From positions 55,722 to 119,721 of the forward strand of contig JADLFW010000018.1 of the NCBI GenBank assembly GCA_020849615.1: a DNA stretch of 64,000 bases, given 5' to 3'. This DNA is from Phycisphaerales bacterium. Its GTDB lineage: Bacteria > Planctomycetota > Phycisphaerae > Phycisphaerales > UBA1924. The position numbers and the translations under genes are program-made. The notes beneath the pieces were generated by a model. The model made no database searches and had not been told where the DNA came from. It saw only the letters and a list, made by a program, of their open reading frames with translations. This document shows positions 9,682-45,236 of this stretch, piece after piece; the first letter of the stretch is position 1, and each line of letters begins with the position of its first letter.

Positions 9682-9866
9682 GCGATCGGCGTCCCTCTGC
9701 GCCCCGGCCCTCCGCCCGGACGCGGTCCCGCCCGCTTCTACGGCGGGCCGCCCCGGCGCATCAGAACTCCGGGCCGGGTGGCAAGGGTAGCCGCTCGACG
9801 GACCTCCCGGGGCCCGGATGGCTTCCATCCCCCCTTCACACCGCCCCGCGCGGGTACCCTTCCCGC

Positions 9867-12023: not shown

Positions 12024-12167
12024 GGCGGAACTCCTCGGTGCGCGGGCGGCATCACCCGCGAGACGTTGTTCCGCGCGGGCCTCCGGGGCGTTGCGTTCCG
12101 GTCATGCGCTGGTCGCAGTTAAGCCGGTTCAGGGTCCGTTCCCCGGGCGCACCACGCCCGGATCGGG

Positions 12168-13376: not shown

Positions 13377-13451
13377 GGGCAAGCTCCCTTTCGAGTTCCG
13401 GATCACAGCCTACCGCGCCTGTACGGCGTTCCACAGGGGAATCGGGCCCGT

Positions 13452-18976: not shown

Positions 18977-20392
18977 CTATCGCGGCGTCGCCTGCAGCAT
19001 GCCCGTGTCCGTCTGGAACCGGGCCGCCTTCCGGGCCCGCTCCGAGGCCTCCGTCGCGATCTGCGCCTCCCGCAGCTTCTGGGCCCGGTCCAGCTCCTTC
19101 AGCACATCGGGGTCGGGGTTGATCAGCAGCTCCAGGCTGCTCGTGCCCTCCGGCAGCCACATCATCTGCACGCTGTCGCGGTCCATCAGCTTGGTCAGGG
19201 CTTCCTTCCACTCGCGCTCGATCATCACCAGCGGGCTGCCCTCATACAGCTCGAGCTTGGCCCGGAACGCCGTCGCGTCCGCCTGGGCCCGGTTCACGAT
19301 GTCGGCCCGGTACTGCCGCGCATCGTTGAGCAGCGCGGTGACCTCGCCCGAGGCCCGCGGCGCATCGGCGCCGGCCCGGCCCTCGAAGAGCGCGTTGACC
19401 TTCGCCAGCGCCGCGGTCTTGCCCGCGGCATCGCCGCTGTCCACGGCCCGCTCGTACTCGTCGATCCCCGCCAGCAGCGCATCCACCGCCGCCCCCGCCT
19501 TGGCGTTCAGCACGCGCTGCCGCTCGGTCTCGGCCTCTTCGCGCAGCTTGTTGGCGTTGGCCGCCGCGGCCTGCACGGCGTTGAACTTGTCGCGCAGGAA
19601 CAGGGGCGGCATCTTCTGGTCCAGCGCCAGCTGGTCGATCACGATCCCGCTGCCCGTCGCCGTCAGCATCCGCTGGGCGATCTCCTTGGCCCGCGACGCC
19701 ACGCTCCCCGCATCCCCCGTCGACTGCTTCAAGAGGTCGTCGATCGTCACCTGGGCCGCTGCGTGCACGATCCCCCGCTGCACCGCCGCCATCACCAGCT
19801 TGCGCTCATCCTCGGTGTAGATGTTCTGCGCGTACAGCTCCGGCTTCTCCCGCCGGTACACCACCGACCACTGCGTGTGCGCGATGCTGTTATCCGCCGT
19901 CAGCAGCGACCCGTCGTTGGCCGGGTTCAGCGAGCTCGACCGCGGGATCTGGTCGATCGGCCGCCCCCGGGCCGACTCCTCCACGAACGGCCAGAACGAG
20001 CGGTCGATGCTCAGGTTCACCGCCCCCGTGCTCACCTTCACCAGCTCGCCCACCGGGTACGGGAAGCTGAAGCGGAACCCGGGGTCCAGCCGGGCCGACT
20101 CCACCTTGCCGAACATCAGCCGGATCCCCTGCTCACCCTCCTTCACCGACTGGAACCCGCTGAACGCGAACAGCACCGCCAGCACCACCATCGCCAGCTG
20201 CAGGATCCGGAACGTGATCCGGATCGCCTCCGAGAGCGACTGGTGCGCCGGGTCCAGCAGCGAAGCCTCATCCACCGCCGAGCGCGGGCCGCCCTCGCCG
20301 CCGGCGCCCCGCGCCGGGCCGCCGCCCGCCCCGCCGGTCAACAGCGGATCATCCGGGCCGCGCCGCACACTCTGGAAGTGGGGGGCGCTCAT
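18977..20392 (-). CDS. SPFH/band-7 protein (HflK/HflC-like)
   Basis: Single TM ILQLAMVVLAVLFAFSGF. SPFH core GEQGIRLMFGKV...LDPGFRFSFPYPVGELVKVS. Long C-terminal coiled coil. The start overlaps the upstream stop (ATGA at 20389-20392). Confidence 0.8.
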   Translation of the reverse strand: MSAPHFQSVRRGPDDPLLTGGAGGGPARGAGGEGGPRSAVDEASLLDPAHQSLSEAIRITFRILQLAMVVLAVLFAFSGFQSVKEGEQGIRLMFGKVESARLDPGFRFSFPYPVGELVKVSTGAVNLSIDRSFWPFVEESARGRPIDQIPRSSSLNPANDGSLLTADNSIAHTQWSVVYRREKPELYAQNIYTEDERKLVMAAVQRGIVHAAAQVTIDDLLKQSTGDAGSVASRAKEIAQRMLTATGSGIVIDQLALDQKMPPLFLRDKFNAVQAAAANANKLREEAETERQRVLNAKAGAAVDALLAGIDEYERAVDSGDAAGKTAALAKVNALFEGRAGADAPRASGEVTALLNDARQYRADIVNRAQADATAFRAKLELYEGSPLVMIEREWKEALTKLMDRDSVQMMWLPEGTSSLELLINPDPDVLKELDRAQKLREAQIATEASERARKAARFQTDTGMLQATPR

Positions 20393-21405
20393 CGCGGCGC
20401 CCCCTCCGACCGCGGCTGGCCCGCCGGCGTCTCACCGGCCTTCGGCTGCGCGGGCCGGGCCGGCCCGGGCTCGGTCGGCCCGCCGCCCTGCCCCAGCGCC
20501 GACGGGTCCACCAGCCCCAGCTCCGACGCCGTCATCACGAACGTCGCGCGCTTGGACATCACATCCTTGAAGAACTCCATCTTGCGCAGGAACACCGCCA
20601 GCTGCGGGTTGGAATCCAGCTTCTTGATGTACTCCGCCGCCTCGTTGTCGCCCCGCGACTTGATCTCCTGCGCCAGCGTCTGCGCGAACGTCTCGATCTT
20701 GCGGGCGTTGGATTCGGCCGTCGAGCGGATCGTCTGGGCCACGCTGGCCCCCTTGCTCTCCAGCTCCTTGGCCAGCTTGTCCCGCGTCTGCCCCATCGCG
20801 TCGAACACCGCCGTCGTCGTCGCCTCGGGCAGCACGATCCGGCTCACGCCGACATCCATGACCTCCAGGCCCCAGTTCGCCAGCGTGCCCGCCTGCTCCC
20901 CGCCCGTGTTCATCGTCGCCAGCACCTGGCCCTCCAGGTCGCCCAGCTTCGTGCCCGCGGGGTCGGGCGTGAACAGCTCGCTCAGCCGGAACTTGCTCGT
21001 CGACGCCAGCGCGCTCGACAGGCTCTTGCGCAGGCTCTCCTCCGCGCTGCGGTAATGGTCCACCGACCGCTCCCCCGCGTTGCTGAAGCGCTGGAAGAAC
21101 TTCAGCGGGTCCGTCACCCGCCACGTGCAGAACGCCTCCACGATGATCTGGCGGTCATCGGCCGTCTGCTGCGTCTCGCTCCGGGCCTGCAAAATCCGCA
21201 GCCGCGTGTCGTACTTCGTCACGCTCTGGATCGGGTAGGGCCACTTGAAGCGCAGCCCGGCGTCCTTCTTCACGTCCTCCGGGCCCGCCTTCCCGAACGT
21301 CGTCAGCACCGCCGCCTCCGTGAACCGCACCGTGTAGGTGACGGTGAACGAGAGCAGCGCCGCCAGGAACACCGCCGTGATCACGATCAAGACCAGTCGT
21401 CGCAC
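20389..21405 (-). CDS. SPFH/band-7 protein (HflC-like)
   Basis: N-terminal TM LVLIVITAVFLAALLSFTV. SPFH core reads TEAAVLTTFGKA...GLRFKWPYPIQSVTKYDTRLRIL...IIVEAFCTWRVTDPLKFF. Confidence 0.8.
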   Translation of the reverse strand: MRRLVLIVITAVFLAALLSFTVTYTVRFTEAAVLTTFGKAGPEDVKKDAGLRFKWPYPIQSVTKYDTRLRILQARSETQQTADDRQIIVEAFCTWRVTDPLKFFQRFSNAGERSVDHYRSAEESLRKSLSSALASTSKFRLSELFTPDPAGTKLGDLEGQVLATMNTGGEQAGTLANWGLEVMDVGVSRIVLPEATTTAVFDAMGQTRDKLAKELESKGASVAQTIRSTAESNARKIETFAQTLAQEIKSRGDNEAAEYIKKLDSNPQLAVFLRKMEFFKDVMSKRATFVMTASELGLVDPSALGQGGGPTEPGPARPAQPKAGETPAGQPRSEGAPR

Positions 21406-21453
21406 GCCAACGCTCCTGCTAGAGAATCCGACACGCCTTCTCGTCTCGCCGTC

Positions 21454-23577
21454 TCACTGGTTCTCCGGCGTCTTCCCCACGTTGGGGTCAAAGATAGCCG
21501 CCCCGGACTGCCTGTCCTGCAGCTCGGCCCGGATCTTCAGGTCCGCCACCGCATCGCTCGTGATGTACAGCCGCGACTTGGCGAAGGCTTCCTTCAGCGC
21601 CTCGAAGTACAGCGACGCCTTGTACACCTCCGGCGAGGCCTCGTACGCCGCCAGCTGCCCCTCGTACCGCGCGGCCCGCCCGCGCTCCCGCATGTGCCGG
21701 GCCCAGCGCTCGGCCCGGGCCTCGGCGATCGTCGCCGCCGCCCGCCCGCCCGCCGTCTCGATCAGCTGCTGGATCTTGCGCTCCTGGGCCCGGATCTGCT
21801 CGGAAGTCGCCGGGCTCGCCCCGCCGCGGCCATCCCGCAGCGCCGTCAAGGCGTCGATCTCCGCCACGATCCGGTTCGCCAGGTCCACGCTGCCCACCAC
21901 CCGCGTCAGCGTCTCGATCTCATCCGCGTTGGCCGCCTCGATCTTGGCCTGACGGTTCTGCTCCGCCTGCACCACCCGCTCGAAGTTCGCCGCCACCTTC
22001 TGGGGCGGGTGTGGACGCATCACCCCCAGCGCCAGGATCTCGACGCCCGCCCCCCGCGGCTTGCCGTCCGGGCCCGGGTTCATCTCCGCGAACGCCGCCT
22101 CGATCCGCTTCCGCAGCTCGGCCGCGATCTCGACCTTCCGCCCGCCGATCACATCATCCAGCGAAGCCCCCGAGAAGTACCGCACGATCTCCCGCTGGGC
22201 CACCGACCGCAGCAGGTCATCCCGCAGCTCGGGCGCCGCCAGCTGGTCGAAGAGCATCACATCGCTCACCGCGTACTGCAGCGGGATCTCGACCGCCACC
22301 ATCGCCAGCCCGGCGACCGCATCCCGTCCCGATGATTCCGCCCCCGCCCGCGACGGCTGCACCAGCTGGTACATCTCCTCGCGCGCGTGCTCGTTGGTCC
22401 ACAGGATCGGCCCCTCCGCGGTCGGCGGCGGCGTCGCCAGGTCGATCGTCCGAACGCCGGTCGCGGTGTACCCGGCCACGCTGCGCCGGCCCGTCCGTGG
22501 ATCGGTCCTCAGCAGCACCGGCGACTCCACGGTGTCGATGGGCCACGGCGCCTTGACGTGCAGGCCCGGGCCCAGCTCCTTGCCGATCGGCCGCCCGAAC
22601 CGCAGCACGATCGCCCGCTGGTGCGGCTGCACCACCGTCAGCGCGGTCAACGCCCAGATGATGCCCAGCCCCAGCAGCAGGAGCAGCAGCACCGACCGGC
22701 TCAGCAGCCGGTAGAACCACCCCGAGGTGACGTTGAACCCCAGCTGGTAGTTGATCGCATCGCTGATCGACTTGGCGATCCGGTCCGGCGCCGCCGCGAA
22801 CCCCAGGAACCGCGAGTCGAACGCGGGCCGGGGCAGCTCGCCCGGCTTCCGCGGCCGGTACAGGTCCAGCACGAAGTTCAGGAAGATCTCGGCGCCCGCC
22901 GCGATCATGTAGATCGGGAACGCGACCTGCAGGTACCGCAGCACCACATCAGGCCCGGCGATGTCGATGAACTGCCCGACCGCCATCGCCAGGCCCAGCA
23001 GCGCTGCGCCCACCGCCGCGGCCGAGCCGGCCCGCAGGTTGGCCCACACCTTCTGCTTGGCCATCCCCGAGACGTACCGCGCGAACACGAAGCCCACGAA
23101 CGCCAGGCTCAGCCCGATCGCGATGGCCCAGCCGCGCTGCGCGGGCTCGCCGAAGCGGTCCGGCGACAGGAGGTCCCGCGCCTGCGAGAGCCGCCACAGC
23201 CCCAGCCCGATCATCGCCGCGCCGATCGCCAGGCTCACCGCGGGGACCGCGAAGCGGTGCAGCATCTGCACCCGCCGGGCCGCCACGCGGAAATCCCCCG
23301 CCTGACCCTCGAAGACGCTCGACCCCGCCCCCTCCGCCTCCGCCAGACGCTCCGCCTCCAGCGCCTCCACCCGCTCCCGCCGGTGCTGATCAAAGACGAT
23401 CACCAGCGTCAGCCAGATCGGCACCCCCAGCGCCACCGCCAGGCACGCCGTCACCGCCGCGTGGTCGTGCGCCAGCACCCCGTACACCAGCAGCGCCACC
23501 GCCAGCACCGTCTGGATCACCAGCCCCAGAAGGCTCACGCTCGTCGCACGCCGGTAGGTCAGATAGTCGGCTTTCAT
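21454..23577 (-). CDS. Polytopic membrane protein fused to an SPFH/band-7 domain
   Basis: Start at ATG 23577 (MKADYLTYRR). About 330 aa with multiple TM helices. Then QRAIVLRFGRPIGKELGPGLHVKAPWPIDTV and a C-terminal coiled coil. Confidence 0.8.
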   Translation of the reverse strand: MKADYLTYRRATSVSLLGLVIQTVLAVALLVYGVLAHDHAAVTACLAVALGVPIWLTLVIVFDQHRRERVEALEAERLAEAEGAGSSVFEGQAGDFRVAARRVQMLHRFAVPAVSLAIGAAMIGLGLWRLSQARDLLSPDRFGEPAQRGWAIAIGLSLAFVGFVFARYVSGMAKQKVWANLRAGSAAAVGAALLGLAMAVGQFIDIAGPDVVLRYLQVAFPIYMIAAGAEIFLNFVLDLYRPRKPGELPRPAFDSRFLGFAAAPDRIAKSISDAINYQLGFNVTSGWFYRLLSRSVLLLLLLGLGIIWALTALTVVQPHQRAIVLRFGRPIGKELGPGLHVKAPWPIDTVESPVLLRTDPRTGRRSVAGYTATGVRTIDLATPPPTAEGPILWTNEHAREEMYQLVQPSRAGAESSGRDAVAGLAMVAVEIPLQYAVSDVMLFDQLAAPELRDDLLRSVAQREIVRYFSGASLDDVIGGRKVEIAAELRKRIEAAFAEMNPGPDGKPRGAGVEILALGVMRPHPPQKVAANFERVVQAEQNRQAKIEAANADEIETLTRVVGSVDLANRIVAEIDALTALRDGRGGASPATSEQIRAQERKIQQLIETAGGRAAATIAEARAERWARHMRERGRAARYEGQLAAYEASPEVYKASLYFEALKEAFAKSRLYITSDAVADLKIRAELQDRQSGAAIFDPNVGKTPENQ

Positions 23578-24016
23578 GCTCTGTCCCAATGCGCCCGCCC
23601 GCGGGCACAACAATCCCCACTCGGTCGGTCCCCTCGCCGCCGGGCCCGGGCCTTCCCCGTTCGCCGGTTGTCAAACCGGTCGTCGCCGCCCGGGGCTGCA
23701 TCCCCTCCGCGACCGCCGACCGCTCGCTCTCGTCCTCCGGGGCGGGCGAACGCCCGCTTCGAACCGGCAAGACCTTTCCCGGGCACCGAACCCGCCTCCC
23801 GCGGGGGCGTATTGTGTCCACCCCCGCACGGGCTGTCCACCGACCTCGCGCCCCCTCACTCCTCAAAGGTGTGGGGGCGCACCTTCGGCGGTTTGATGTA
23901 CGGACGCCGCGAACCTATGTTCGTCGCCGCCCGAAGAACTCTTCGCCGGGCCTTCTCTCCCCGGCGCCCCTCCGGAGCCCGCACCGCGGCCCCGGGCGCC
24001 CCCGCAGCTTCCGGAC

Positions 24017-26467: not shown

Positions 26468-27628
26468 TCAGCAACCCGCGTCGTAGAAGTTGAGGAACTC
26501 GAGGTAGTCGGCAAAGTCCACGAACCCATCGTGGTTGAAGTCCACCCGCGGATTCTGCGCGTTGTAGAGGTTCAGGAACTCCAGGTAGTCGGCGAAATCT
26601 ACCAGCCCATCATCGTTGAGGTCCGCGGGGCAGTGCGTGAACATCCACACCGAGCCGACGCCATCGGCGATGTAGAGCGTGGGGTTGCCGTGCATGGCGT
26701 ACGGGCCCGTCGTCACGAACATCGGGTACGCCGCGCCCGGCAACCCGCGGGCGAACGGCAGGACGGTCCCGCCGGGCAGGATGAGGTCCACATCGCCGGT
26801 GATGTCGTTGCAGGCATAGAGCGCGTACCCGAAGTAGGGATCGCCGGGCGAGAAGGCGATCCCGGCGAGGCCCGGGCCGAGCCAGGCCAGGGGCAGGGAG
26901 GGCCAGCCGCGGAAATCGACGCTGACCACCGCGCCGGCCCGGTGCGTGCTGACCCAGAGCGGGTTCATCCCGAACCCTCGGGCGAGGTCGAACGTGAAGT
27001 AGCGCGGATCGTCGAAGGGCAGCTCGCACCAGAGCCGCGGCGCGCTCAGCGGCGGGATCTGGATGATGCCATCGCTGGCATCACCGCCCCAGTCCGAGAC
27101 ATACATGTAGCCGCCGTAGACGGGGGTGCGGTCGATCTGCACCTGCGAGTGGCCCGGGTTGGCCAGGAGCTGCATCGATGGGTGCCACGATCCGCCCGGC
27201 AGCACGCGCACCAGGAACGGCTCGATCAGCGTGCCGAGCTGACCGACGTACATGCGCTCCGGGCCGCCGAATAACCCCGGGGTCGGCGCTGGCATGTTGG
27301 CCGTCGGCCCGTCGAGGTCCACGCCGAACGCCCCGCCGCCGAACAGGCCGAATGGGCTGGTGTAGGGATGGGCCGCACCGTCGGCGTCGATGCGGATGAT
27401 GTCCCGCCCCGCCTGCTCGGAGATGTACATGAACCCGCCGTGGCGCCCGCCCGGCGCATCAATCAGGCCGAACCGGGGCTCCGCGAGCGCGGGCTGCCCG
27501 GCGGCTACGCCCGCGAAGGGCAAGGCGCTGATGCCGGGCCGAAGCACGACGGGTTCCAGGTCGTGGGCGCCGGCCGGGCCGGCGAGGGCCAGCACGCCCA
27601 GCACTCCCGATGTGATGGCGTGTTTCAT
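26468..27628 (-). CDS. Secreted protein, family A passenger, with dockerin-like C-terminal module ending in GC
   Basis: ATG 27628 preceded by GAGGAG. Signal peptide MKHAITSGVLGVLALAGPAGA. C-terminus reads HCPADLNDDGLVDFADYLEFLNLYNAQNPRVDFNHDGFVDFADYLEFLNFYDAGC. Confidence 0.85.
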   Translation of the reverse strand: MKHAITSGVLGVLALAGPAGAHDLEPVVLRPGISALPFAGVAAGQPALAEPRFGLIDAPGGRHGGFMYISEQAGRDIIRIDADGAAHPYTSPFGLFGGGAFGVDLDGPTANMPAPTPGLFGGPERMYVGQLGTLIEPFLVRVLPGGSWHPSMQLLANPGHSQVQIDRTPVYGGYMYVSDWGGDASDGIIQIPPLSAPRLWCELPFDDPRYFTFDLARGFGMNPLWVSTHRAGAVVSVDFRGWPSLPLAWLGPGLAGIAFSPGDPYFGYALYACNDITGDVDLILPGGTVLPFARGLPGAAYPMFVTTGPYAMHGNPTLYIADGVGSVWMFTHCPADLNDDGLVDFADYLEFLNLYNAQNPRVDFNHDGFVDFADYLEFLNFYDAGC

Positions 27629-27720
27629 GATGGTCTCCTCGGGGCCCGGTCCTTCGCGCGGCCGCCCGCCGGGCCCGTTCCGGGCGGTCGGCATTGTCGG
27701 GGTTGGGCGCGGTCGTGTGT

Positions 27721-28896
27721 TCAGCAGCCGGCGTTGTAGGAGTTCAGAAACTCGAGGTAGTCGCTGAAGTCCACCAGCCCGTCGCCCGTGTAGTCCACGC
27801 GCAGGTCGCCCGCATCGTACAGGTTCAGGAACTCCAGGTAGTCGGCGAAATCAACCAGCGTGTCGTCGTTCAGGTCCGCCGCGCAGGGCGTGAACATCCA
27901 AACGGTCCCGCTCGCGCAGTCCGCCACATACAGCGTCGGCCGACCGCGTACCGCGTACGGGCCGATCGTCACGAACATCGGATAGGCCGCGCACGGGAGC
28001 CCGCTCGCGAACGGCAATACCTGCCCGCCCGGCATCACGATGTCGATCATCCCCTGGATCATGTTGCCCACGTACAGCCCGGTCCCGAAGTGGGCGCCGC
28101 CGGGCCCGAAGGCCAGCCCGGCCGCTCCCGGTGTCAGCACCGCCAGCGGAGGGGTGACCGCCCCGCCCGGCATGATGGAGAACACCGCGCCGGTCGCGAA
28201 CGAGCTCACCCAAAGGCCCGCCGGGCCGTAGCCCGTCGCGCCGCCCGAGGCGTCGAACGTGAAGTAGCGGGGGTCGACCCCCGGCAGCGGCGCCCACAGT
28301 GCGGCTCCGCCCGCCGGGCTCAGGAAGAAGATGCCGTCCGAGCCGTCACCGCCCCAGTCGCTGGCGTGCAGCACGCCGCCGTAGGCGAAGCCAGGCGTGC
28401 GGTCGAACTCCAGGTGCCAGGCGCCCGGCGTCGCCGGCACCACGAGCGCCGGGCCCCAGCCCCCACCCGGGCGCACACTGATCAGCGGCATCGGCACCGG
28501 CCCGATCTGCCCGGCCAGCACGGTCGCCGGGCCGCCGAACGCGCCCAGCGTCGGGAACGGCAGGTTCGCCAGCGGCGCGTCCTGGTCGACGCCGAACGAT
28601 CCGCTGGGGAACGGGCCGAACAGGCTGGTGTATGGCCACACGCGGCCCGTCCCGTCAACGTGGACGAGATCGTTGCCCCCCAGCTCGCTGAGCATCAGCA
28701 TGCCGCCGTGCGGGCCGCCCGGCAGTTCGATGAACCCGCCGACCGGGTTGAACAGCGGCGCCGTCCCCGCGGCAAGCCCCGCGAACGGCGCGACCTTGAT
28801 TCCGGGCTGGTGCACGACCGGCTCGAAGTTCTGCGCGGCCGCCCACGGCGCAAGGGCACAAAGCAATGACATCCCCATGAGCGCAGCGAGTTTCAC
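27721..28896 (-). CDS. Secreted protein, family A passenger, with dockerin-like C-terminal module
   Basis: GTG 28896 preceded by AAGGAGG. Signal peptide KLAALMGMSLLCALAPWAAA. Collinear with the 26468 and 30749 genes (EPVV..PGI..PFAG.., PYT..FGPF). C-terminus reads PCAADLNDDTLVDFADYLEFLNLYDAGDLRVDYTGDGLVDFSDYLEFLNSYNAGC. Confidence 0.85.
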   Translation of the reverse strand: MKLAALMGMSLLCALAPWAAAQNFEPVVHQPGIKVAPFAGLAAGTAPLFNPVGGFIELPGGPHGGMLMLSELGGNDLVHVDGTGRVWPYTSLFGPFPSGSFGVDQDAPLANLPFPTLGAFGGPATVLAGQIGPVPMPLISVRPGGGWGPALVVPATPGAWHLEFDRTPGFAYGGVLHASDWGGDGSDGIFFLSPAGGAALWAPLPGVDPRYFTFDASGGATGYGPAGLWVSSFATGAVFSIMPGGAVTPPLAVLTPGAAGLAFGPGGAHFGTGLYVGNMIQGMIDIVMPGGQVLPFASGLPCAAYPMFVTIGPYAVRGRPTLYVADCASGTVWMFTPCAADLNDDTLVDFADYLEFLNLYDAGDLRVDYTGDGLVDFSDYLEFLNSYNAGC

Positions 28897-29063
28897 GTCG
28901 CTCCTCCTTTCGCGATGGTGCGGAGAACGGCGTGCCGGCCATCGCGGGGAACTCACCGGTCCGGGCCCGGCCCGCCCCGATGCCCCCGGGGAGCAATGGC
29001 CCGCCCACGCCGCTGAGCGGGGGCGCGCCGCTGCTTGTCATCGCGCGATGCAGGTCTGCACAC

Positions 29064-30659
29064 TCAGCACCCCGCGTCGTAGTAGTTCAGGAACTCGAGA
29101 TAGTCGCTGAAGTCGACCAGCCCGTCCTTGTTGTAGTCGACCCGCGGGTCTTGGATGTCGTAGTAGTTCAGGAACTCAAGGTAGTCGGCGAAGTCGACCA
29201 GGCCATCGCCGTTGAGATCGGCCGGGCAGCCGCCCGAGACGGTCAGCGTGGCCGGGTCGCTGGTCGCGCTGCCGCAAGGGTTGGTGAAGATGATGGTGTA
29301 TTCACCCGCATCGGACGGGCGGACCCCTTCGATCGTCAGAACAGCTGGCGTGCCGTCGGTGGGGGAGGGCAGGGAGCCCGATGCGCCGATGACCGTGCCG
29401 CCGCCGGGCGAAGCACCGCCGGGCCCGTTGACGACATCAACTCCGTCACGCTGCCAGCGCCACGCGACGTTCGCGTAGCCGTCGGCCGGGATGGACGTGA
29501 AGCCGGCGACCGAACCGCCGTTGACGCCCTGGGCCTCAGGCTGAACCGCGATCCACGGCTTGGGCAGATCGGACCAGCGGGCGATGTGGTCGGCCGACAG
29601 TCCACCCGCAAGCACGAAGTTCCCGCCCGCGATCAGTTCGCCGCTGCCCATCACTGCCATCCCTTGGGCGGCTGAATTCAACCCTGTGCCCAGCGGCGAC
29701 CATGTTGCGCCGTTCCATCGGGCGATGTTGTTGGCAAACGCGCCACCCGCCATCCAGAAATCTCCGGCCGCGATCAGATCGCCGCTCGGCAGGCGGGCCA
29801 GCGCGAGTACAGGGCCGTTGGTTCCTGAACCGACAGGCGCCCACGCAGAGTCATCCCAGCGAGCGACTCTGCTGACAGCGACGCCGCCGGCGGTCGTGAA
29901 CATTCCTCCCGCGGCGAGTTTGCCATCGAGGAAGGGCACGAGCGCGTGAACCGTGTTGTTCATTCCCGACCCCAGCGGCGACCACTCTTCGCCATTCCAG
30001 CGAGCAATCCTGTTCGCCGCCACGCCGCCCGCGATCGTGAAGTCGCCACCTGCGACCAGGTCTCCGCCCGGCAGCACGGCGAGCGTGTGCACCGCGTCAT
30101 TCATCCCCGACCCCAGGGGAAGCCAAGCGGAGCCATTCCATCGGGCAATTCTGCCGACGGGCACGCCGCCCGCGGAAGTGAAGGAGCCGGCGGCGACAAG
30201 ACCGTCGCGGAAGGTGGCCAGCGCGGCCACTTCGCCGTTGGTCCCCGAACCGAGCGGCAGCCACTCCGAGCCGTTCCAGAGCGCGACATTGTTCGCCGCG
30301 ACGCCCCCGGCCGTTGAGAAGATGCCTCCAGCGGCCACGCTCCCGCCCGACACGACGGCCAGCGAAGTTACATAGGAGTCGTGCCACGACATGCCCGAGC
30401 CGAGCGGTGACCACGAAACGCCGTTCCAGCTGGCGATGTCGTTGGCCGATACCCCGCCCGCGTCAGGAAAATGTCCGCCCGCGATCAGCAGACCGTCGGG
30501 CGTGACGACAACGGCGTAAACCTCCGATGTGCTGCCTGCCCCGATCCCATCCATCGGCAGCCACTGCGGCTGACACTGCGCGGCAGCCGGGGCAGCCGCC
30601 AGGCCCAGCACCACGGATCCGATGGCCCCAAGCGCCCGAACCGATCTCGACTTGTTCAT
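29064..30659 (-). CDS. Secreted beta-propeller repeat protein with an Ig-like domain and dockerin-like C-terminal module
   Basis: ATG 30659. Signal peptide MNKSRSVRALGAIGSVVLGLAAAPAAA. About nine IA(R/S)WNGxxWxPLGSG repeats. Ig-like segment ends GEYTIIFTNPCGSATSDPATLTV. C-terminus reads GCPADLNGDGLVDFADYLEFLNYYDIQDPRVDYNKDGLVDFSDYLEFLNYYDAGC. Confidence 0.85.
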   Translation of the reverse strand: MNKSRSVRALGAIGSVVLGLAAAPAAAQCQPQWLPMDGIGAGSTSEVYAVVVTPDGLLIAGGHFPDAGGVSANDIASWNGVSWSPLGSGMSWHDSYVTSLAVVSGGSVAAGGIFSTAGGVAANNVALWNGSEWLPLGSGTNGEVAALATFRDGLVAAGSFTSAGGVPVGRIARWNGSAWLPLGSGMNDAVHTLAVLPGGDLVAGGDFTIAGGVAANRIARWNGEEWSPLGSGMNNTVHALVPFLDGKLAAGGMFTTAGGVAVSRVARWDDSAWAPVGSGTNGPVLALARLPSGDLIAAGDFWMAGGAFANNIARWNGATWSPLGTGLNSAAQGMAVMGSGELIAGGNFVLAGGLSADHIARWSDLPKPWIAVQPEAQGVNGGSVAGFTSIPADGYANVAWRWQRDGVDVVNGPGGASPGGGTVIGASGSLPSPTDGTPAVLTIEGVRPSDAGEYTIIFTNPCGSATSDPATLTVSGGCPADLNGDGLVDFADYLEFLNYYDIQDPRVDYNKDGLVDFSDYLEFLNYYDAGC

Positions 30660-30748
30660 GGTCGTTCTCCCGTTGTGACCATTCGAGCGGCAAAGCGCCG
30701 CCCGCGCGGTCGGGCGGGGGCGGCGCGAACACACGTCGTACCGCGGAC

Positions 30749-31918
30749 TCAGCAGCCCGCGTCGTAGAAGTTGAGGAACTCGAGATAGTCGCTGAAGTCG
30801 ACCAGCCCGTCCTTGTTGTAGTCGACCTTCGGGTCGGCCTGGTTGTACAGGTTCAGGAACGTCAGGTAGTCGCCGAAGTCAACCAGCGAGTCGTCGTTCA
30901 GGTCGGCCGGGCAGTGCACGAACATCCACACCGAGTCGATGCCATCGGCCACGTACAGGGTCGGGTTCCCGCCGTACGCGAAAGGCCCGATCGTCACGAA
31001 CATCGGGTACGCCGCCGACTCCAGACCGCGCGAGAACGGGGTCACCAGCCCACCCGGCATGATGATGTCGATGTCCCCCAGCGCCAGGTTGCAGGCGTAC
31101 AGGCCGATCCCGAAGTACGGGTCGCCCGGGCCGAACGCCAGCCCCTCAAGGTCGGGCTGCAGCACCGCGATCGGCGGCATGGCCATGCCGCCCGGCGTGA
31201 TCGAGAACACCGCGCCCGTCTGGTACGAGCTCACCCACAGGTTGCCGGGCCCGAACCCCGTCGCCCCGCCCGACAGGTCGAACGTGAAGTACCGCGGGTC
31301 GCTGTTGGGGATCGGCGCGAACATCACCGGGCCGGCCGGCGTCACGCGCCAGATCGCATCACTCTGATCGTTGCCCCAGTCGCTCACGTACATGAACCCG
31401 CCGTAGCGGAAGCCGGGTGTGCGGTCGATCTGCAGCTGCGCCATGCCGGGGTTGGCCGGCACCGGCAGCCACGGGATCCACGGCCCGCCCGGCATCACCC
31501 GCATGATCGGCGGCACACCCGCCGGGCTCGGCCCCTGGCCGACGTACAGCATCGCCGGGCCGCCGTACAGCCCCGGCGGGCCGGCCAGCAGGCTCGCGAT
31601 CGGCCCGTCAATGTCGATCCCGAACGCTCCGCCCGGGAACGGGCCGAAGGGCATGGTGTACGGGAACGCGTTGCCCAGCGCGTCGATCCGCACCAGGTCG
31701 TTGCCCGCCAGCTCGGCGATGAGCATCTCGCCGCTGTGCAGCCCGCCCGGCAGATCGATCAGCCCGAACTTCGGCGAGATCAGCGGCGGCTTGCCGGCGT
31801 CAGCCCCCGCGAACGGGAACGCCGAAATGCCGGGCGGCGTGGAGATCACCTGCCCGGCCGCGACCTGCAGGATCGAGATCGCGCCCGCGAACCCCGCGAT
31901 GATGTTCATGGTCTTCAT
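30749..31918 (-). CDS. Secreted protein, family A passenger, with dockerin-like C-terminal module
   Basis: ATG 31918 preceded by AAGGAGG. Signal peptide MKTMNIIAGFAGAISILQVAAG. C-terminus reads HCPADLNDDSLVDFGDYLTFLNLYNQADPKVDYNKDGLVDFSDYLEFLNFYDAGC. Confidence 0.85.
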   Translation of the reverse strand: MKTMNIIAGFAGAISILQVAAGQVISTPPGISAFPFAGADAGKPPLISPKFGLIDLPGGLHSGEMLIAELAGNDLVRIDALGNAFPYTMPFGPFPGGAFGIDIDGPIASLLAGPPGLYGGPAMLYVGQGPSPAGVPPIMRVMPGGPWIPWLPVPANPGMAQLQIDRTPGFRYGGFMYVSDWGNDQSDAIWRVTPAGPVMFAPIPNSDPRYFTFDLSGGATGFGPGNLWVSSYQTGAVFSITPGGMAMPPIAVLQPDLEGLAFGPGDPYFGIGLYACNLALGDIDIIMPGGLVTPFSRGLESAAYPMFVTIGPFAYGGNPTLYVADGIDSVWMFVHCPADLNDDSLVDFGDYLTFLNLYNQADPKVDYNKDGLVDFSDYLEFLNFYDAGC

Positions 31919-32123
31919 GATCAACCTCCTTGCACGGCGCCACGACGCGGTCGCGCCGATGTGCGTTCCGCTCCGCCGATCCACAACCCGATTTCAAAGC
32001 CCCCGGCCCGGACAGGCGGGCCCCCTTGCGAGGTGATCAGAGGTTGACAGCCGGCATCATCCCGAGCCCGGGCCCGGCGATCCACAGGCAATCCGACCTG
32101 TTCAACGCCCCGCTCTGCGGCGG

Positions 32124-33195: not shown

Positions 33196-33412
33196 CGCCG
33201 CGGAACGGTGCGGGGTACCTATGGATCCGCGGACACGCGGGGGACAGAATCGGGGTTCATCGCCGGGCCGCACGGCCCATGCGTTGACCGCTTTCGCCGC
33301 GACCGCCGCCCGTGGGTTCCGTCGCCGAGCGACACGAAGGCCAGCGGCACAGACTCATTTCACGGCCCGACCGGCCCTGTTCGTTCCGCTGATCGGGCGA
33401 AGGAGGTCGATC
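33196..33412 (+). promoter_or_regulatory. Conserved upstream leader, copy A (homologous to 35163-35373)
   Basis: Shared blocks are cgccgcggaacRgtgc, gccgcgaccNNcgcccgtgRgtt and gaaggccagcggcRcagRctcattYca (33336-33362 versus 35300-35326, 24 of 27 identical). AGGAGG at 33401-33406 precedes the ATG. Confidence 0.55.
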
Positions 33413-34411
33413 ATGCAACTGCACATGAGAAGCTTGGTGTGCATCGCCGCGGTGGCCCTGGCACCCCTCGCGGCGCAGGTGTGGGGAAAGCCGCCGGATT
33501 CCCAGAAAGGGCCCGACAAGAAGCGTGAACCGATCCCGGTCAGCAACCCGAACCAACTCGCGATCAAGCGGTGGTATCCGGCCACGCTGGTCGGGAGCGA
33601 GGTGTCGCTGCCCGGGGCCGTCGCGATCGCCTGCGATGGCGCGCACATCTGGGCCGCGCCCCAGGGCGGCGATCAGTTGCTGAAGATCCGGGCCGCGGAC
33701 GGCGAGGTCGTGGCGTCGTACCTGGTGCCGTGGGCCAGCTACAACATGATGACCTTCGACGGGGACTGCCTCTGGATGACGGGCCTGTACGAGCAGAACA
33801 TCGTGAAAGTCCGGGCCGCCGACGGCGAGGTCCTGGGCACCTTCTACGCCGGGGCCTACCCGCGCGGCGTGGCGTTCGACGGCCAGTCCATCTGGGTCGC
33901 GGCCAGCGGCGAAGGCATCATCAGGCGGCTGCTTCCCGACGGCACGATCGACGCCGCGTACCCCGTGGGTGCCGGTCTGTTCGACGTCCTGTACGACGGA
34001 ACATCGTTGTGGGTGAGTTTGTACAACGAGAACGCCGTGAAGCAGGTGCGCCCCGGCGATGGCGCCATCCTGGCGACGGTGCCCGTCGGGGCCGGGCCGA
34101 CTCAGTTGGCGTTCGACGGGGCCCACATCTGGGTCAGCGGCCAGGATTCAGACTCGGTCACCAAGATCACGGCGGCAGACGGCAAGGTCGTCGGCGCATA
34201 CCCCGTGGGTGACGGGCCGTTCGGCATCGTCTTCGACGGCGCCGGCGTCTGGGTGGTCGGCGTGTTTGACAACACGCTCACGAAGCTCCGGGCCTCGGAC
34301 GGCGTGCAGGTCGGCCGGTGGCCGACCGGCGGCAACCCCCTCGGTCTCGCGTTCGACGGCGCGAACGTGTGGGTCACCAGCTACATCAGCGGCACCGTGA
34401 CGAAGTACTGA
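33413..34411 (+). CDS. Secreted beta-propeller repeat protein (YVTN/NHL-like)
   Basis: ATG 33413 after AGGAGG. Signal peptide MQLHMRSLVCIAAVALAPLAAQVWG. About seven repeats of roughly 40 aa of the type DG..(I/L)WV...(V/I)(T/V)K(I/L)RA.DG.V.G.YPVG..P.G..FDG. The long N-terminal extension in ORF 32948..34411 is rejected. Confidence 0.8.
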   Translation: MQLHMRSLVCIAAVALAPLAAQVWGKPPDSQKGPDKKREPIPVSNPNQLAIKRWYPATLVGSEVSLPGAVAIACDGAHIWAAPQGGDQLLKIRAADGEVVASYLVPWASYNMMTFDGDCLWMTGLYEQNIVKVRAADGEVLGTFYAGAYPRGVAFDGQSIWVAASGEGIIRRLLPDGTIDAAYPVGAGLFDVLYDGTSLWVSLYNENAVKQVRPGDGAILATVPVGAGPTQLAFDGAHIWVSGQDSDSVTKITAADGKVVGAYPVGDGPFGIVFDGAGVWVVGVFDNTLTKLRASDGVQVGRWPTGGNPLGLAFDGANVWVTSYISGTVTKY

Positions 34412-35162: not shown

Positions 35163-35373
35163 CGCCGCGGAACAGTGCCGATTTCCTGTGGACCTACAGG
35201 CACGCCTGGCTCAGCATCGATTAATCGGTCGACGGCCTGCCCGTGCATCGATGGCCTCCGCCGCGACCAGCGCCCGTGAGTTGGATTGTCGGATGATGTG
35301 AAGGCCAGCGGCGCAGGCTCATTCCAAAACCCGACGGGCTGATCGGATGTGGCGTTCCACAGGGAGTGTGCCA
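35163..35373 (+). promoter_or_regulatory. Conserved upstream leader, copy B (homologous to 33196-33412)
   Basis: Same ordered blocks as copy A. AGGGAG at 35361-35366 precedes ATG 35374. Confidence 0.55.
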
Positions 35374-36549
35374 ATGCGAAACTTGCATCAGCTTGCGGCG
35401 ATCTGTGCTTGCACGGTGGCGCCTTCCACCCTTGCGGCGCTCTCCGGACTCAGGGTGGACTATCCGACGGGGTCGCGCCCCCAATCCATCCACGCGGCGG
35501 ACGTGGACGGGGACGGCAGGCCGGACCTGGTAACGGCGAACGAGTCGGCCAGCACCGCCTCGGTGCTGCTCAACCGCGGGGATGGGACCTTCGACGCGAA
35601 GGTGGACTACCCGACGGGAATGCACCCCTACTCCATTGACGCGACGGACGTGGATGGGGACGGGCGGATAGACCTGGTGACCGCGAACCGCATCCCCAGC
35701 ACCGCCTCGGTGCTGCTCAACCGCGGGGACGGGACCTTCGCAGCGAAAGTCGACTACCCGACGGGGTGGCGTCCTGCCTCCGTAGACACGGCGGACGTAA
35801 ACGGAGACGGCACGCCGGACCTGCTCACGGCAAACGGCGAGGCGCACACCGCGTCGGTGCTCATCAACCGCGGGGATGGGACCTTCGACGCAAAGGTGGA
35901 CTACCCGACGGGGATGCTCCCCTACTCCATTGACGCGACGGACGTGGATGGGGACGGGCGACCCGACCTGATCACGGCGAACTACTACGCCAGCACCGCC
36001 TCGGTGCTGCTCAACCGCGGCGACGGGACCTTCGCGGCGAAAGTGGATTACCCGACGGGGTCGTTCCCCTACTCCATACACGTCGCGGATGTGAACGGGG
36101 ACGGACGGCCCGACCTGGTGATGGCGAACTTCTTCGCCGACACCGCCTCGGTGCTGCTCAACCGCGGGCACGGGACCTTCGGCAGGAAATTGGACTACCC
36201 GACGGGGTCGCACCCCACCTCCATATGCGCGGCGGACGTGGACGGGGATGGAAGGCCGGACCTGGTGACGGTGAACAACACCGCCGGCACCGTCTCGGTG
36301 CTGCTCAACCGCGGGTACGGGACCTTCGCGGCGAAAGTGGACTACCCAACGGGGTCGACCCCCATCTCCATAGACGCGGCGGATGTGAACGGGGACGGGC
36401 GGATGGACCTGGTGACCGCGAACCGCATCCCCAGCACCGCCTCGGTGCTGCTCAACCGTGGGGACGGAACCTTCGAGGTCGGGGTGAAACAGTACTACCG
36501 GACGGGGTCGTACCCCACTGCTCTATCGCCGGCCCTGAGTGCGAAGTAG
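35374..36549 (+). CDS. Secreted FG-GAP/VCBS-repeat protein, seven-blade integrin-alpha-like propeller
   Basis: Signal peptide MRNLHQLAAICACTVAPSTLAALSG. Seven copies of VDYPTGxxPxSIxxADVDGDGRPDLVTANxxxxTASVLLNRGDGTFxAK. Confidence 0.85.
   Translation: MRNLHQLAAICACTVAPSTLAALSGLRVDYPTGSRPQSIHAADVDGDGRPDLVTANESASTASVLLNRGDGTFDAKVDYPTGMHPYSIDATDVDGDGRIDLVTANRIPSTASVLLNRGDGTFAAKVDYPTGWRPASVDTADVNGDGTPDLLTANGEAHTASVLINRGDGTFDAKVDYPTGMLPYSIDATDVDGDGRPDLITANYYASTASVLLNRGDGTFAAKVDYPTGSFPYSIHVADVNGDGRPDLVMANFFADTASVLLNRGHGTFGRKLDYPTGSHPTSICAADVDGDGRPDLVTVNNTAGTVSVLLNRGYGTFAAKVDYPTGSTPISIDAADVNGDGRMDLVTANRIPSTASVLLNRGDGTFEVGVKQYYRTGSYPTALSPALSAK
35455..36483 (+). repeat. Seven tandem 147-nt coding repeats inside the FG-GAP gene
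   Basis: gtggactaYccgacggg recurs at 35455, 35602 and onward with a 147-nt period. Repeats 2 and 7 share DLVTANRIPSTASVLLNRGDGTF exactly. Confidence 0.8.
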
Positions 36550-43061: not shown

Positions 43062-43169
43062 CCAGGGGTTCGGGCCCGCCGTCCGGGCGCCACCTCCGCG
43101 GGCTTGGGTCCTACGCTGTCGCGGCGCGAGACCGCGTCTTTTCGCCCGCGCGGGCCCGGAGCCGAATCG

Positions 43170-45236
43170 ATGCCCAGAGACATCCCTGTCGGCAACGGCG
43201 ACCTGCTGATCGCCTACGACCGCTTCTACCGCGTCCGCGACTTTTATTACCCGCACGTCGGCCAGTACAACCACACCGACGGGCAGATCCAGCGCTTCGG
43301 AGTCTGGGCCGACGGCCGCTTCGCCTGGATCGAGGACCCGGGCTGGAAGCGCGAGCTGCGCTACAAGCCCGACACCCTCGTCACCAGTGTCACCCTGACC
43401 AACGACGACCTGGGCGTCGAGATCACCTGCCATGACGCCGTGGATTTCCACGAGCCGGTCTTCTTCCGCCGGGCCGTCGTCCGCGATCTCCTGGGCAAGG
43501 AGCGCGATGTCCGCATCTTCTGCCACTGGGACCTCTCCATCCGGGGCACGCCGGTCGGCGACACCGCCAACTACGACCCCGCCACCAGCAGCCTCGTCAT
43601 CTACAAGGATGACATCTACTTCCTCTTCAACGCCTGCGATGCCTTCAAGTGCGGCGTCGACCACTGGGCCATCGGCACCAAGCGCGTCGGCGGCGCTGAG
43701 GGCACCTGGCGCGATGCCGAGGATGGGCGGCTGGGCCGCAACGCCATCTCGCAGGGCTCGGTCGATGCGACCATCGGCTACAACCTCCAGGTCCCGCCCG
43801 GCGGCGAGGCCTACGTCAGCACGTGGGTGGCGGCGGGGCGGTCGTACACGCAGGTCAAGGCGATCAACGCCCGCATCCTGGAGAAGGGCCCGGACCGGCT
43901 GCTGGCCCGCACCGAGGCGTACTGGAAGCTCTGGGCCCGCAAGGAGCCGATCGACACCTCGCCGCTGCCGCGCGGCGTGCGCGACCTGTTCTACCGCTCG
44001 CAGCTGGTGATGCGCACCCAGATCGACAACCGCGGCGCCATCATCGCCGCCAACGACTCCGACATCACCCAGTTCGGCGGCGACCACTACTCCTACTGCT
44101 GGCCCCGCGATGGCGCCATGGTGGCCTACGCCCTGGTGCTCACGGGCCAGAGCGAGCTCTCCCGCTCGTACTTCCGCTACTGCGGCGAGGTCATCGAGCA
44201 CGACGGCTTCTTCCTCCACAAGTACACCCCCGCGGGCGAGCTGGCCTCCAGCTGGCACCCGTGGATGGTCGAGGGCCAGCGCGTCCTGCCCATCCAGCAG
44301 GATGAGACCGCGCTGGTCACCTGGGCCTTGCGCAAGCACTTCATCACGTTCCGCGAGGTCGAGTTCATCAAGCCGCTCTACAACCCGCTGGTCGTCCGGC
44401 CCGCGGAGTGGATGCTGCAGTACCGCGATGCCAACGGCCTGCCCCTCCCCTCGTGGGACCTGTGGGAGGAGCGCCGCGGCGTCCACACCTTCACCGTGGC
44501 CGCCGTCATCGGGGCCCTCACCGCCGCCGCCGCCTTCGCCCGCGACTTCGGCGAGCCCGACCGCGAGGCGGCCTTCCGCGAGGGCGCCGACCGCATGCGG
44601 GCCGCGCTCAAGAAGCACCTGTGGGACCCGCAGCGCAACCGCTTCGCCCGCCTGGCCCAGCCCCAGCCCGACGGCGGCTACCGGCTCGACATGACCTCCG
44701 ATTCGGCCAACTTCGCGCTCTTCGCGTTCGGCGCCTTCGAGGCCTCGGACCCCAAGGTCGAGGCCGAGATGCACGCCCTGCGCGAGCGGCTCTGGGTCCG
44801 CACCGAGATCGGCGGGTGCGCCCGCTACGAGCGCGACTACTACCACCAGGTCGAGCGCGAGAAGATCGATGAGGTGCCCGGCAATCCCTGGGTCATCTGC
44901 ACGCTGTGGCAGGCCCAGTACCTGATCGAACGGGCCGCCACCCTGGAGCAACTCAACGAGGCGATGCCCCTGCTGGAGTGGGTCGTCCGCCACGCCGAGC
45001 CCTCGGGCGTGCTCGCCGAGCAGTACCACCCCTACACGGGCGAGCCCATCAGCGTCAGCCCGCTGACCTGGAGCCACGCGACGTTCGTCATCGCCGTGAT
45101 GGAGTACCTCCGCAAATACGAGCGGCTCACCGCCACGAGCCTGAAGCGCATCGGCGCGGCCGTCCGGGCCGCAGCGCAGCCGGGCCCGACCATGGGCGCC
45201 GGGCCGCTCCCCATCGCGACCGATCACCATACCTGA
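43170..45236 (+). CDS. Glycoside hydrolase family 15 (glucoamylase / glucodextranase / trehalase-like)
   Basis: ATG 43170 (MPRDIPVGNGDLLIAYD). NDSDITQFGGDHYSYCWPRDGAMVAYAL, LPIQQDETALVTWAL, WDLWEERRGVHTFT and PLTWSHATFV are visible. Confidence 0.85.
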   Translation: MPRDIPVGNGDLLIAYDRFYRVRDFYYPHVGQYNHTDGQIQRFGVWADGRFAWIEDPGWKRELRYKPDTLVTSVTLTNDDLGVEITCHDAVDFHEPVFFRRAVVRDLLGKERDVRIFCHWDLSIRGTPVGDTANYDPATSSLVIYKDDIYFLFNACDAFKCGVDHWAIGTKRVGGAEGTWRDAEDGRLGRNAISQGSVDATIGYNLQVPPGGEAYVSTWVAAGRSYTQVKAINARILEKGPDRLLARTEAYWKLWARKEPIDTSPLPRGVRDLFYRSQLVMRTQIDNRGAIIAANDSDITQFGGDHYSYCWPRDGAMVAYALVLTGQSELSRSYFRYCGEVIEHDGFFLHKYTPAGELASSWHPWMVEGQRVLPIQQDETALVTWALRKHFITFREVEFIKPLYNPLVVRPAEWMLQYRDANGLPLPSWDLWEERRGVHTFTVAAVIGALTAAAAFARDFGEPDREAAFREGADRMRAALKKHLWDPQRNRFARLAQPQPDGGYRLDMTSDSANFALFAFGAFEASDPKVEAEMHALRERLWVRTEIGGCARYERDYYHQVEREKIDEVPGNPWVICTLWQAQYLIERAATLEQLNEAMPLLEWVVRHAEPSGVLAEQYHPYTGEPISVSPLTWSHATFVIAVMEYLRKYERLTATSLKRIGAAVRAAAQPGPTMGAGPLPIATDHHT

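Follow-up and report, generated by a model that had tools for sequence, protein, structure and literature searches.

A cysteine-bracketed GC-type dockerin tail on secreted beta-propeller proteins of a Phycisphaerales bacterium, a possible genome-specific docking tag

Why would a bacterium place one and the same C-terminal tail on a series of secreted proteins, and what could this tail bind? The question is raised by a stretch of 64,000 nucleotides (the window in the following) from a Phycisphaerales bacterium (assembly GCA_020849615.1, contig JADLFW010000018.1, positions 55,722 to 119,721 of the forward strand). Four consecutive minus-strand genes (g1 to g4, 26468-31918) and two more (g5 and g6, 10860-13376) had been described in an original prediction, made from the letters of this DNA, as encoding proteins with a signal peptide and a common tail. 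This description is borne out. The N-termini of all six proteins are basic, then hydrophobic, and then show an Ala-rich cleavage-type segment, which is typical of Sec signal peptides as judged by eye. The six proteins are shown here to be Sec-exported beta-propellers that end in the module modelled by NCBIfam NF041540 (dockerin_GC).

The tail comprises 54 residues with the layout C-x2-[DxNxDGxVDxxD]-helix, a 7-residue linker, [DxNxDGxVDxxD]-helix and a final GC followed by the stop codon; one of the six proteins ends in GCT instead. In g1 the tail reads CPADLNDDGLVDFADYLEFLNLYNAQNPRVDFNHDGFVDFADYLEFLNFYDAGC (26471-26632, minus strand), and NF041540 covers residues 355-408 of the open reading frame (ORF). 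All six proteins score well above the curated cut-off of NF041540 (29 bits), with 45.2 (g1), 43.4 (g2), 44.1 (g3), 39.0 (g4), 43.8 (g5) and 47.4 bits (g6). The E-values range from 1e-10 to 2e-12, and the profile is aligned from end to end (1-67 of 67) in every case, always with the last 54 residues. These matches lie far beyond chance. The label 'GC-type dockerin', offered in the original prediction, is therefore correct, and the NCBI name of an orthologue (P0006) is indeed 'GC-type dockerin domain-anchored protein'. NF041540 is an annotation model. The family is already annotated but uncharacterised, without a described receptor, localisation or function, and no paper using the name 'GC-type dockerin' was found in our literature search. 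The bracketing of the module by Cys residues at both ends, also predicted, holds in 163 of 163 tails, in which both residues are invariant. Among the calcium ligands, those at loop positions 1, 5 and 12 show little or no variation, and the one at position 9 is D or N; Asp occupies position 12, like in dockerins. Up to four residues are tolerated past the last Cys. Tails with a longer linker and an extra Cys pair (e.g. ...CFETEVCGGSS...) are present at loci L034, L073 and L080, in metagenome-assembled genomes (MAGs) labelled Phycisphaera mikurensis and Tepidisphaera; the extra pair suggests a second disulfide in these tails.

Is this module a dockerin or a pair of EF-hands? A profile of ten tails was compared with the sequences of solved structures. 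The best match is the DocCel48 dockerin of B. cellulosolvens (2y3n_B, E = 7e-6), which spans both repeats; EF-hand proteins come next at similar E-values, mostly via single loops. An AlphaFold2 (AF2) model of the tail alone, made with 32 tails, has a predicted local distance difference test score (pLDDT) of 94.9; its helices span 16-27 and 43-55, and none precedes loop 1. Ranked by Foldseek E-value, four of the five top structural matches of this model are dockerins (2y3n_B, 2ozn_B, 6kge_D and 5k39_B). It resembles dockerins with template-modelling (TM) scores of 0.55-0.66 and a root-mean-square deviation (rmsd) of 2.2-2.9 A, as against TM scores of 0.25-0.37 and an rmsd of about 10 A for nearly all EF-hand or calmodulin-like proteins (4.4 A for one). 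The modelled tail is thereby shown to have the dockerin fold, i.e. two tandem F-hands, and not that of an EF-hand pair. The profile match, the AF2 model and the structural comparison uphold the earlier reading of two loop-plus-helix calcium sites as a dockerin organisation. The accompanying term 'double EF-hand' is not borne out: the EF-hand models of Pfam (PF13499/PF00036) reach 13-18 bits against thresholds of 25-30, the fold differs, and the entering helix is absent. In dockerins, a non-covalent 'intramolecular clasp' joining the N-terminal to the C-terminal end stabilises the calcium-bound form (PMC3821032). The two Cys residues of the tail, one just before loop 1 and the other at the C-terminal end, coincide with the location of this clasp (PMC3821032), and this position suggests a disulfide version of it.

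More can be learned from how the tails vary. A search with a hidden Markov model (HMM) of the six-frame ORFs from 82 sources gave 165 full-length tails, of which 164 end five residues or fewer from the stop codon. Tail identity is 74% within a genome (304 pairs) versus 49% between genomes (12,899 pairs). Tails carried by unrelated passengers (blastp E > 1e-3) of the same genome are 74% identical (n=255), and those carried by homologous passengers in different genomes are 51% identical (n=301). As far as these sequence comparisons go, they show that the tails evolve with the genome and not with the passenger. The most genome-specific sites, at which the entropy between genomes most exceeds that within a genome, are relative positions 7, 10, 11, 13, 14, 17, 18 and 21 of both repeats; they differ widely from genome to genome but hardly at all inside one. 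For example, LVDFADYLEFLN-type tails are found in some genomes and FVNGDDYDAFAE-type tails in others; in the source genome the helix faces are aromatic (F10, Y13, F16 and Y20). In cellulosomal dockerins, positions 10, 11, 17, 18 and 22 are putative recognition residues (PMC3413522), and positions 10 and 11 are known to determine specificity (PMC8063739). In the profile alignment, the binding hot-spots M17/M50 of 2y3n_B (PMC8063739) coincide with relative position 10 of the tail.

The two halves of the tail vary together. They are 75% identical to each other within one tail, 71% when the halves are taken from other tails of the same genome, and 45% across genomes; restricted to the eight variable positions, identity is 76% inside a tail versus 24% across genomes. 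In dockerins, internal symmetry underlies a dual-binding mode (PMC8063739). The GC-type tails likewise combine lineage-specific residues at positions 10, 11, 17 and 18 with internal symmetry, g5 and g6 being asymmetric. The halves are near-identical in g1-g4. In g5 and g6 the first half reads LVDF(A/T)DYL and the second VD(E/R)SDWLLF, and these tails are 54-61% identical to those of g1-g4. The asymmetric g6-type tail is preserved in the orthologues P0325 and P0326, and judging from these sequences the asymmetry may mark a second specificity class. Recent gene conversion was considered as a source of the uniformity of the tails and rejected. At sites with the same amino acid, codon identity among the tails of the window is 0.38-0.84, close to the 0.60-0.67 expected from codon usage, with only the pairs g3-g4 (0.84) and g2-g4 (0.80) slightly raised. 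The uniformity is thus kept at the protein level.

The tail is not peculiar to this bacterium. For the 80 best loci in a scan of a genome collection, the labels are Phycisphaerales, Phycisphaeraceae, Phycisphaerae or Planctomycetota, MAGs labelled Tepidisphaera and Phycisphaera mikurensis included, with a lone exception, an unclassified 'uncultured bacterium'. The GC-type tail is hence shown to be largely restricted to Phycisphaerae. Tandem arrays of three or four tail-bearing genes are common (e.g. L034, L072, L017 and L080). The 556-aa neighbour of the orthologue at L001 was tried as a homologue of g3 and discarded; it bears the tail variant proper to L001. At least 27 proteins of the source genome are tail-bearing; this count is a lower bound, since a profile search of a set of 5.8 billion proteins yielded mostly short fragments. 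Their passengers include CHRD, CRTAC1/FG-GAP (P0026 for instance), parallel beta-helix, FRG, Ig, C-type lectin, PAP2, cytochrome c peroxidase and Kelch proteins. Searched against 1.84 billion cluster representatives, the tail profile matched 27,804 at E <= 1e-3, a set that includes more general dockerin-like repeats too, and 3,208 at E <= 1e-10. Other architectures were also encountered. Some proteins of 67-79 aa consist of a signal peptide and one module alone (P0122, and P0204, which is IT436_14545 of the source genome). Others are poly-module proteins, with five modules in P0079 and seven in P0067; the genomic context of P0079, limited to a contig of 2.2 kb, gave no information. P0075 has four internal modules upstream of a sorting domain of the type IX secretion system (T9SS), and because of this location upstream of a bona fide T9SS C-terminal domain (CTD) the modules are to be regarded as cargo there.

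What occupies the C-terminal end in relatives of the passengers is informative too. Of the 120 homologues that match the g6 passenger best, about 28 have a T9SS type A sorting domain (PF18962) in this slot, 8 have FlgD_ig and 7 Dockerin_1; 10 GC-type tails, found with the tail HMM, and various 'LLxxWGxC' planctomycete dockerins occur there as well. In the family of about 390 aa to which g1 belongs, the dockerin variant of P0012, P0014 and P0015 is a different one that contains Cys. In P0017 of the same family a Pro-rich motif, a hydrophobic helix and RRRR replace the tail. This end of P0017 was also tried as a PEP-CTERM signal and gave no NCBIfam or Pfam match even at E <= 1, so that we describe it as anchor-like only. 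The interchange of modules in this slot suggests that the tail decides where a protein goes or stays, rather than what the passenger does, and at the level of sequence it argues for a localisation slot.

From these data we can propose that the tail is a tag for docking: with a disulfide as its clasp, it would bind in a calcium-dependent manner to a receptor of the envelope that is shared by the tagged proteins and specific to the genome. We find the balance for and against this reading about even. After Sec export, the module would fold in the oxidising periplasmic or extracellular space and bind two Ca2+ ions, the Cys-Cys disulfide covalently replacing the non-covalent clasp of classical dockerins. 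The exposed helix faces (7, 10, 11, 13, 14, 17, 18 and 21 of each repeat) would then dock the passenger onto one shared receptor. This receptor, not necessarily a cohesin, would be specific to the genome and reside in the cell envelope or matrix. A common tag could in this way gather or anchor dozens of secreted proteins that are unrelated to each other. The near-identical halves of g1-g4 suggest a dual-binding mode as in type I dockerins, and the differing halves of g5 and g6 suggest a single orientation or a second receptor. This modular display or anchoring reading, favoured as surface display in the original prediction, is plausible but unproven. It gains indirect support from the genome-specific concerted evolution at recognition positions and from the swaps of C-terminal modules.

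Several points weigh against such a docking tag. Neither a cohesin nor another receptor candidate was found in a Pfam scan of the approximately 45 proteins of the window, in agreement with the earlier remark that no docking partner is visible there. Around the tails at the 80 other loci, no tail-less neighbour recurs: clustering of 555 ORFs from the 82 sources revealed no tail-less family that is present near the tails in more than five genomes (best 5/50). Exposure at the surface of a diderm requires a step across the outer membrane, and none was identified. Calcium binding, the disulfide and the localisation are, for this tail, predictions. The concerted evolution of the tails could be due to gene conversion in the distant past or to constraints that the two helices place on each other, and not to a partner. 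The Foldseek E-values of the 57-residue model (0.4-0.9) are not significant, so that the fold argument rests on the separation in TM score and rmsd. Finally, the original prediction had proposed to score the tail against PF00404 and NCBIfam models, and this gave a divided answer. NF041540 is passed, as said above, and the EF-hand models and PF00404 (Dockerin_1) stay below threshold in all six proteins: Dockerin_1 gives 16.7, 16.8 and 22.3 bits (the latter for g5) against a gathering threshold of 22.9, and no match at E <= 0.1 for the three remaining proteins.

A broader version of the docking tag, which we put forward only tentatively and as clearly less probable, would be a cohesin-independent docking network spread widely among the Phycisphaerales. 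A code on the two helices, different in each genome, would direct dozens of unrelated secreted proteins to a receptor of a new, non-cohesin kind or to the tails themselves; in the latter case the poly-module and single-module proteins would serve as scaffolds and caps, respectively.

The best surviving alternative is that the tail acts as a sorting or secretion signal, by which an envelope machine (cf. T9SS/PorU or exosortase) would carry cargo exported by Sec through or onto the outer membrane, the tail then maybe being cleaved or covalently attached. The strictly C-terminal position of the tail (164/165) would suit this, as would the signal peptides of all six proteins, which are like those of T9SS cargo, and the T9SS type A domain or the membrane-anchor-like tail (P0017) that homologous passengers have in the same slot. 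Genome-specific co-evolution suits a component of such a machine equally well as a receptor. However, known sorting signals do not resemble a dockerin fold that combines two calcium sites with internal two-fold symmetry, the module is also found internally and in multiple copies (five in P0079, seven in P0067), and in P0075 it precedes a genuine T9SS CTD, hence is cargo. Nor do the residues allowed beyond the last Cys, up to four, and the lack of a dedicated machinery gene adjoining the arrays speak for a sorting signal, which we regard as unlikely.

Still more doubtful is a function without a dedicated receptor, in which the tails would bind each other in a homotypic or heterotypic, calcium-dependent manner, with poly-module proteins as cross-linkers, or would bind glycans or extracellular polymeric substances of the cell surface. 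That no receptor was found would fit with this, and self-recognition predicts that all tails of a genome and both their halves co-vary as a cohort, as they do. Module-only proteins exist (P0079, P0122 and P0204/IT436_14545), and the helix faces are unusually aromatic in the source genome. However, the solved dockerins are described as binding cohesin partners (PMC8063739, PMC3821032), and the corresponding positions in other genomes hold acidic or small residues, e.g. in FVNGDDYDAFAE, and form no obvious glycan platform. The least probable explanation, by a narrow step, is a purely structural role without any partner, in which the tail, loaded with calcium and stapled by a disulfide, would form a cap that keeps exported proteins stable or soluble. 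The conserved calcium ligands and Cys residues, the weak EF-hand matches of Pfam and the partner not found would agree with it. But it is not obvious how an independent 54-aa module would stabilise passengers of unrelated folds (two propeller families, beta-helix, CHRD, FG-GAP, lectin, PAP2 and cytochrome c peroxidase), homologues have localisation modules in its place, and structural constraint alone fails to explain the helix positions that are fixed within a genome and differ between genomes whatever the passenger.

The docking tag, if it is one, is carried in the window by two sorts of passengers. The g1, g2 and g4 proteins, described earlier as three paralogues of about 390 aa, are confirmed as such by their mutual identity of 51-59%. 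The g3, g5 and g6 proteins form a second family with 36-39% mutual identity, and no sequence similarity was detectable between the two (E > 0.04). The statement that the passengers belong to two unrelated families holds for the sequences, and not for the architecture, since both are beta-propellers. An AF2 model of g4 made with 16 homologues (pLDDT 86.5, predicted TM score 0.84) is a six-bladed propeller, whose nearest folds in the PDB are beta-propeller lactonases of the SMP-30/gluconolactonase type and NHL domains (8djf, TMt 0.70). For g3, Pfam gives Rax2 with 43.6 bits and DUF5122 with 39.6 bits, which agrees with its earlier description as a propeller with WNG repeats; the Ig-like domain named together with it stays below threshold (I-set and Ig_3 at about 21 bits, versus Pfam cut-offs of 23.7 and 30). 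In all three WNG propellers a Cys follows right after the signal peptide (AQC), and in g5 and g6 'CPPC' directly precedes the tail. The two motifs suggest an extra N-to-C disulfide that closes the WNG propeller.

The array genes all lie on the minus strand, in DNA with a G+C content of 69.6%. The first, g1 (26468-27628), encodes a protein of 386 aa with a signal peptide, a six-bladed SGL/NHL-type beta-propeller and the GC-type tail, and is identical to IT436_11630 (P0004). It is followed by g2 (27721-28896; 391 aa, tail at 27724-27885), of the same propeller family and identical to IT436_11635 (P0007). Next comes g3 (29064-30659; 531 aa, tail at 29067-29228), the Rax2/DUF5122 'WNG' beta-propeller with the sub-threshold Ig-like segment. 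The last of the four is g4 (30749-31918; 389 aa, tail at 30752-30913), again an SGL/NHL-type six-bladed propeller and identical to IT436_11645 (P0001). The separate pair consists of the secreted WNG propellers g5 (10860-12023; 387 aa), whose asymmetric tail (10863-11024) has VDESDWLLF in its second half, and g6 (12168-13376; 402 aa), with an asymmetric tail (12174-12335) ending in GCT and identical to IT436_11580 (P0324). The full ORFs are 26468-27694, 27721-28956, 29064-30734 and 30749-31984 for g1-g4, and 10860-12023 and 12168-13406 for g5 and g6. The likely true starts at 27628, 28896, 30659, 31918, 12023 and 13376 were derived from gene calling based on G+C at third codon positions (GC3) and from identity to deposited proteins. 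The latter, IT436_11580 and IT436_11630-11645, belong to a Phycisphaerales MAG, lie on a contig of 196 kb and bear the label 'hypothetical'. A scan of the array for promoters and terminators gave no promoter-like site, and terminator-like sites are no more frequent than in shuffled sequence.

The surroundings of the array are made up of housekeeping genes, encoding Mfd, SAICAR synthase, an ABC transporter, SPFH proteins, a PabA-like amidotransferase, FabF, SAM synthetase, the P-protein and others. Three consecutive SPFH/Band-7 proteins (354, 484 and 738 aa; 18977-23670, minus strand) adjoin ABC-2 transporter genes. Next to the array, 33380-34411 (plus strand) encodes another secreted beta-propeller, with the signal peptide MQLHMRSLVCIAAVALAPLAAQ, 'AFDGxxIWV' repeats, a weak SGL match (21.6 bits) and no GC-type tail. 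The protein encoded at 35347-36549 (plus strand) has eight FG-GAP/VCBS repeats (PF13517, 285 bits) and is tail-less as well. The tail is also absent from a protein resembling glycoside hydrolase family 10 (GH10-like; 8017-9915, minus strand) and from a GH15 protein (43062-45236, plus strand), so that the tag is not linked to glycoside hydrolases in the window. The ORF of 3228 aa at 52226-61912 (plus strand) is rich in Gly, Thr, Ser and Asp, and its N-terminal stretch ends in '...EPLEKRELLFSMT', a motif known from large planctomycete extracellular proteins. This giant protein had been suggested as a scaffold, and we reject it in this role. It has no Pfam match and no sequence relative in the PDB, it lies 20 kb away behind housekeeping genes and is not adjacent to the arrays, and nothing was found in its favour.

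In bacteria that do not produce cellulosomes, dockerin-like modules are common for which no cohesin is known, as Peer et al. reportedly found in 2009. The binding target of these modules has long been a loose end. The present lineage offers a clean case of it, with one easily recognised tail on at least 27 proteins of one genome, tandem arrays in many Phycisphaerales genomes and a genome-specific signature at the recognition positions of dockerins. This signature is a concrete handle for finding a receptor, a question that is now more tractable. If a receptor exists, it would define how the secreted proteome is organised in these planctomycetes, and it could provide a compact, disulfide-stabilised and orthogonal docking pair for protein engineering. 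If the cohesin-independent network is true, it would represent a new means by which a diderm can build a protein matrix, be it in the periplasm or outside the cell. Should there be no receptor, the tail would be a calcium-binding structural cap and the finding a routine annotation.

How does the GC-type tail compare with known systems? The proteins of the window are members of the NF041540 family without structural difference, and they have the lineage Phycisphaerae/Planctomycetota in common with it. With the C-terminal sorting domains (T9SS type A CTD and PEP-CTERM) the tail shares the extreme C-terminal slot on homologous passengers and its nature as a lineage-specific tag. However, it is a predicted calcium-binding helical module, whereas the T9SS CTD is a beta-sandwich and PEP-CTERM a transmembrane helix; it can coexist with a T9SS CTD (P0075), and no cleavage or attachment machinery is known for GC tails. 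The type I/II dockerins of cellulosomes (PF00404; DocCel48 2y3n_B, A. cellulolyticus, C. thermocellum) resemble the tail in having two tandem loop-helix units, in their fold (TM 0.55-0.66) and in Asp12. They also show two-fold sequence symmetry, lineage-specific positions 10, 11, 17 and 18 (PMC3413522, PMC8063739) and many passengers per genome. In comparison with them, the GC tail is more compact (54 aa, a repeat spacing of 27 residues and a 6-residue gap relative to 2y3n_B) and would have a covalent Cys-Cys bracket instead of the non-covalent clasp. It belongs to a diderm planctomycete, the window yielded no cohesin, and the passengers are propellers and not carbohydrate-active enzymes (CAZymes). 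A cellulosome consists of CAZymes with dockerins and a scaffoldin with multiple cohesins; in the window the dockerin passengers are beta-propellers, the GH10-like and GH15 proteins are tail-less, and the 3228-aa protein has no cohesin match in Pfam. A non-cellulosomal cohesin-dockerin assembly, the 'planctosome', was hypothesised on purely bioinformatic grounds for Nemodlikiaceae (CL500-3, Phycisphaerae) (PMC6461901). It rests on detected cohesins and on peptidase passengers; here no cohesin was found, and the passengers are propellers or other binding-type folds. With its proposed dockerin-based, calcium-dependent docking that organises secreted proteins in Phycisphaerae, the planctosome is the closest published idea to docking by GC tails (PMC6461901).

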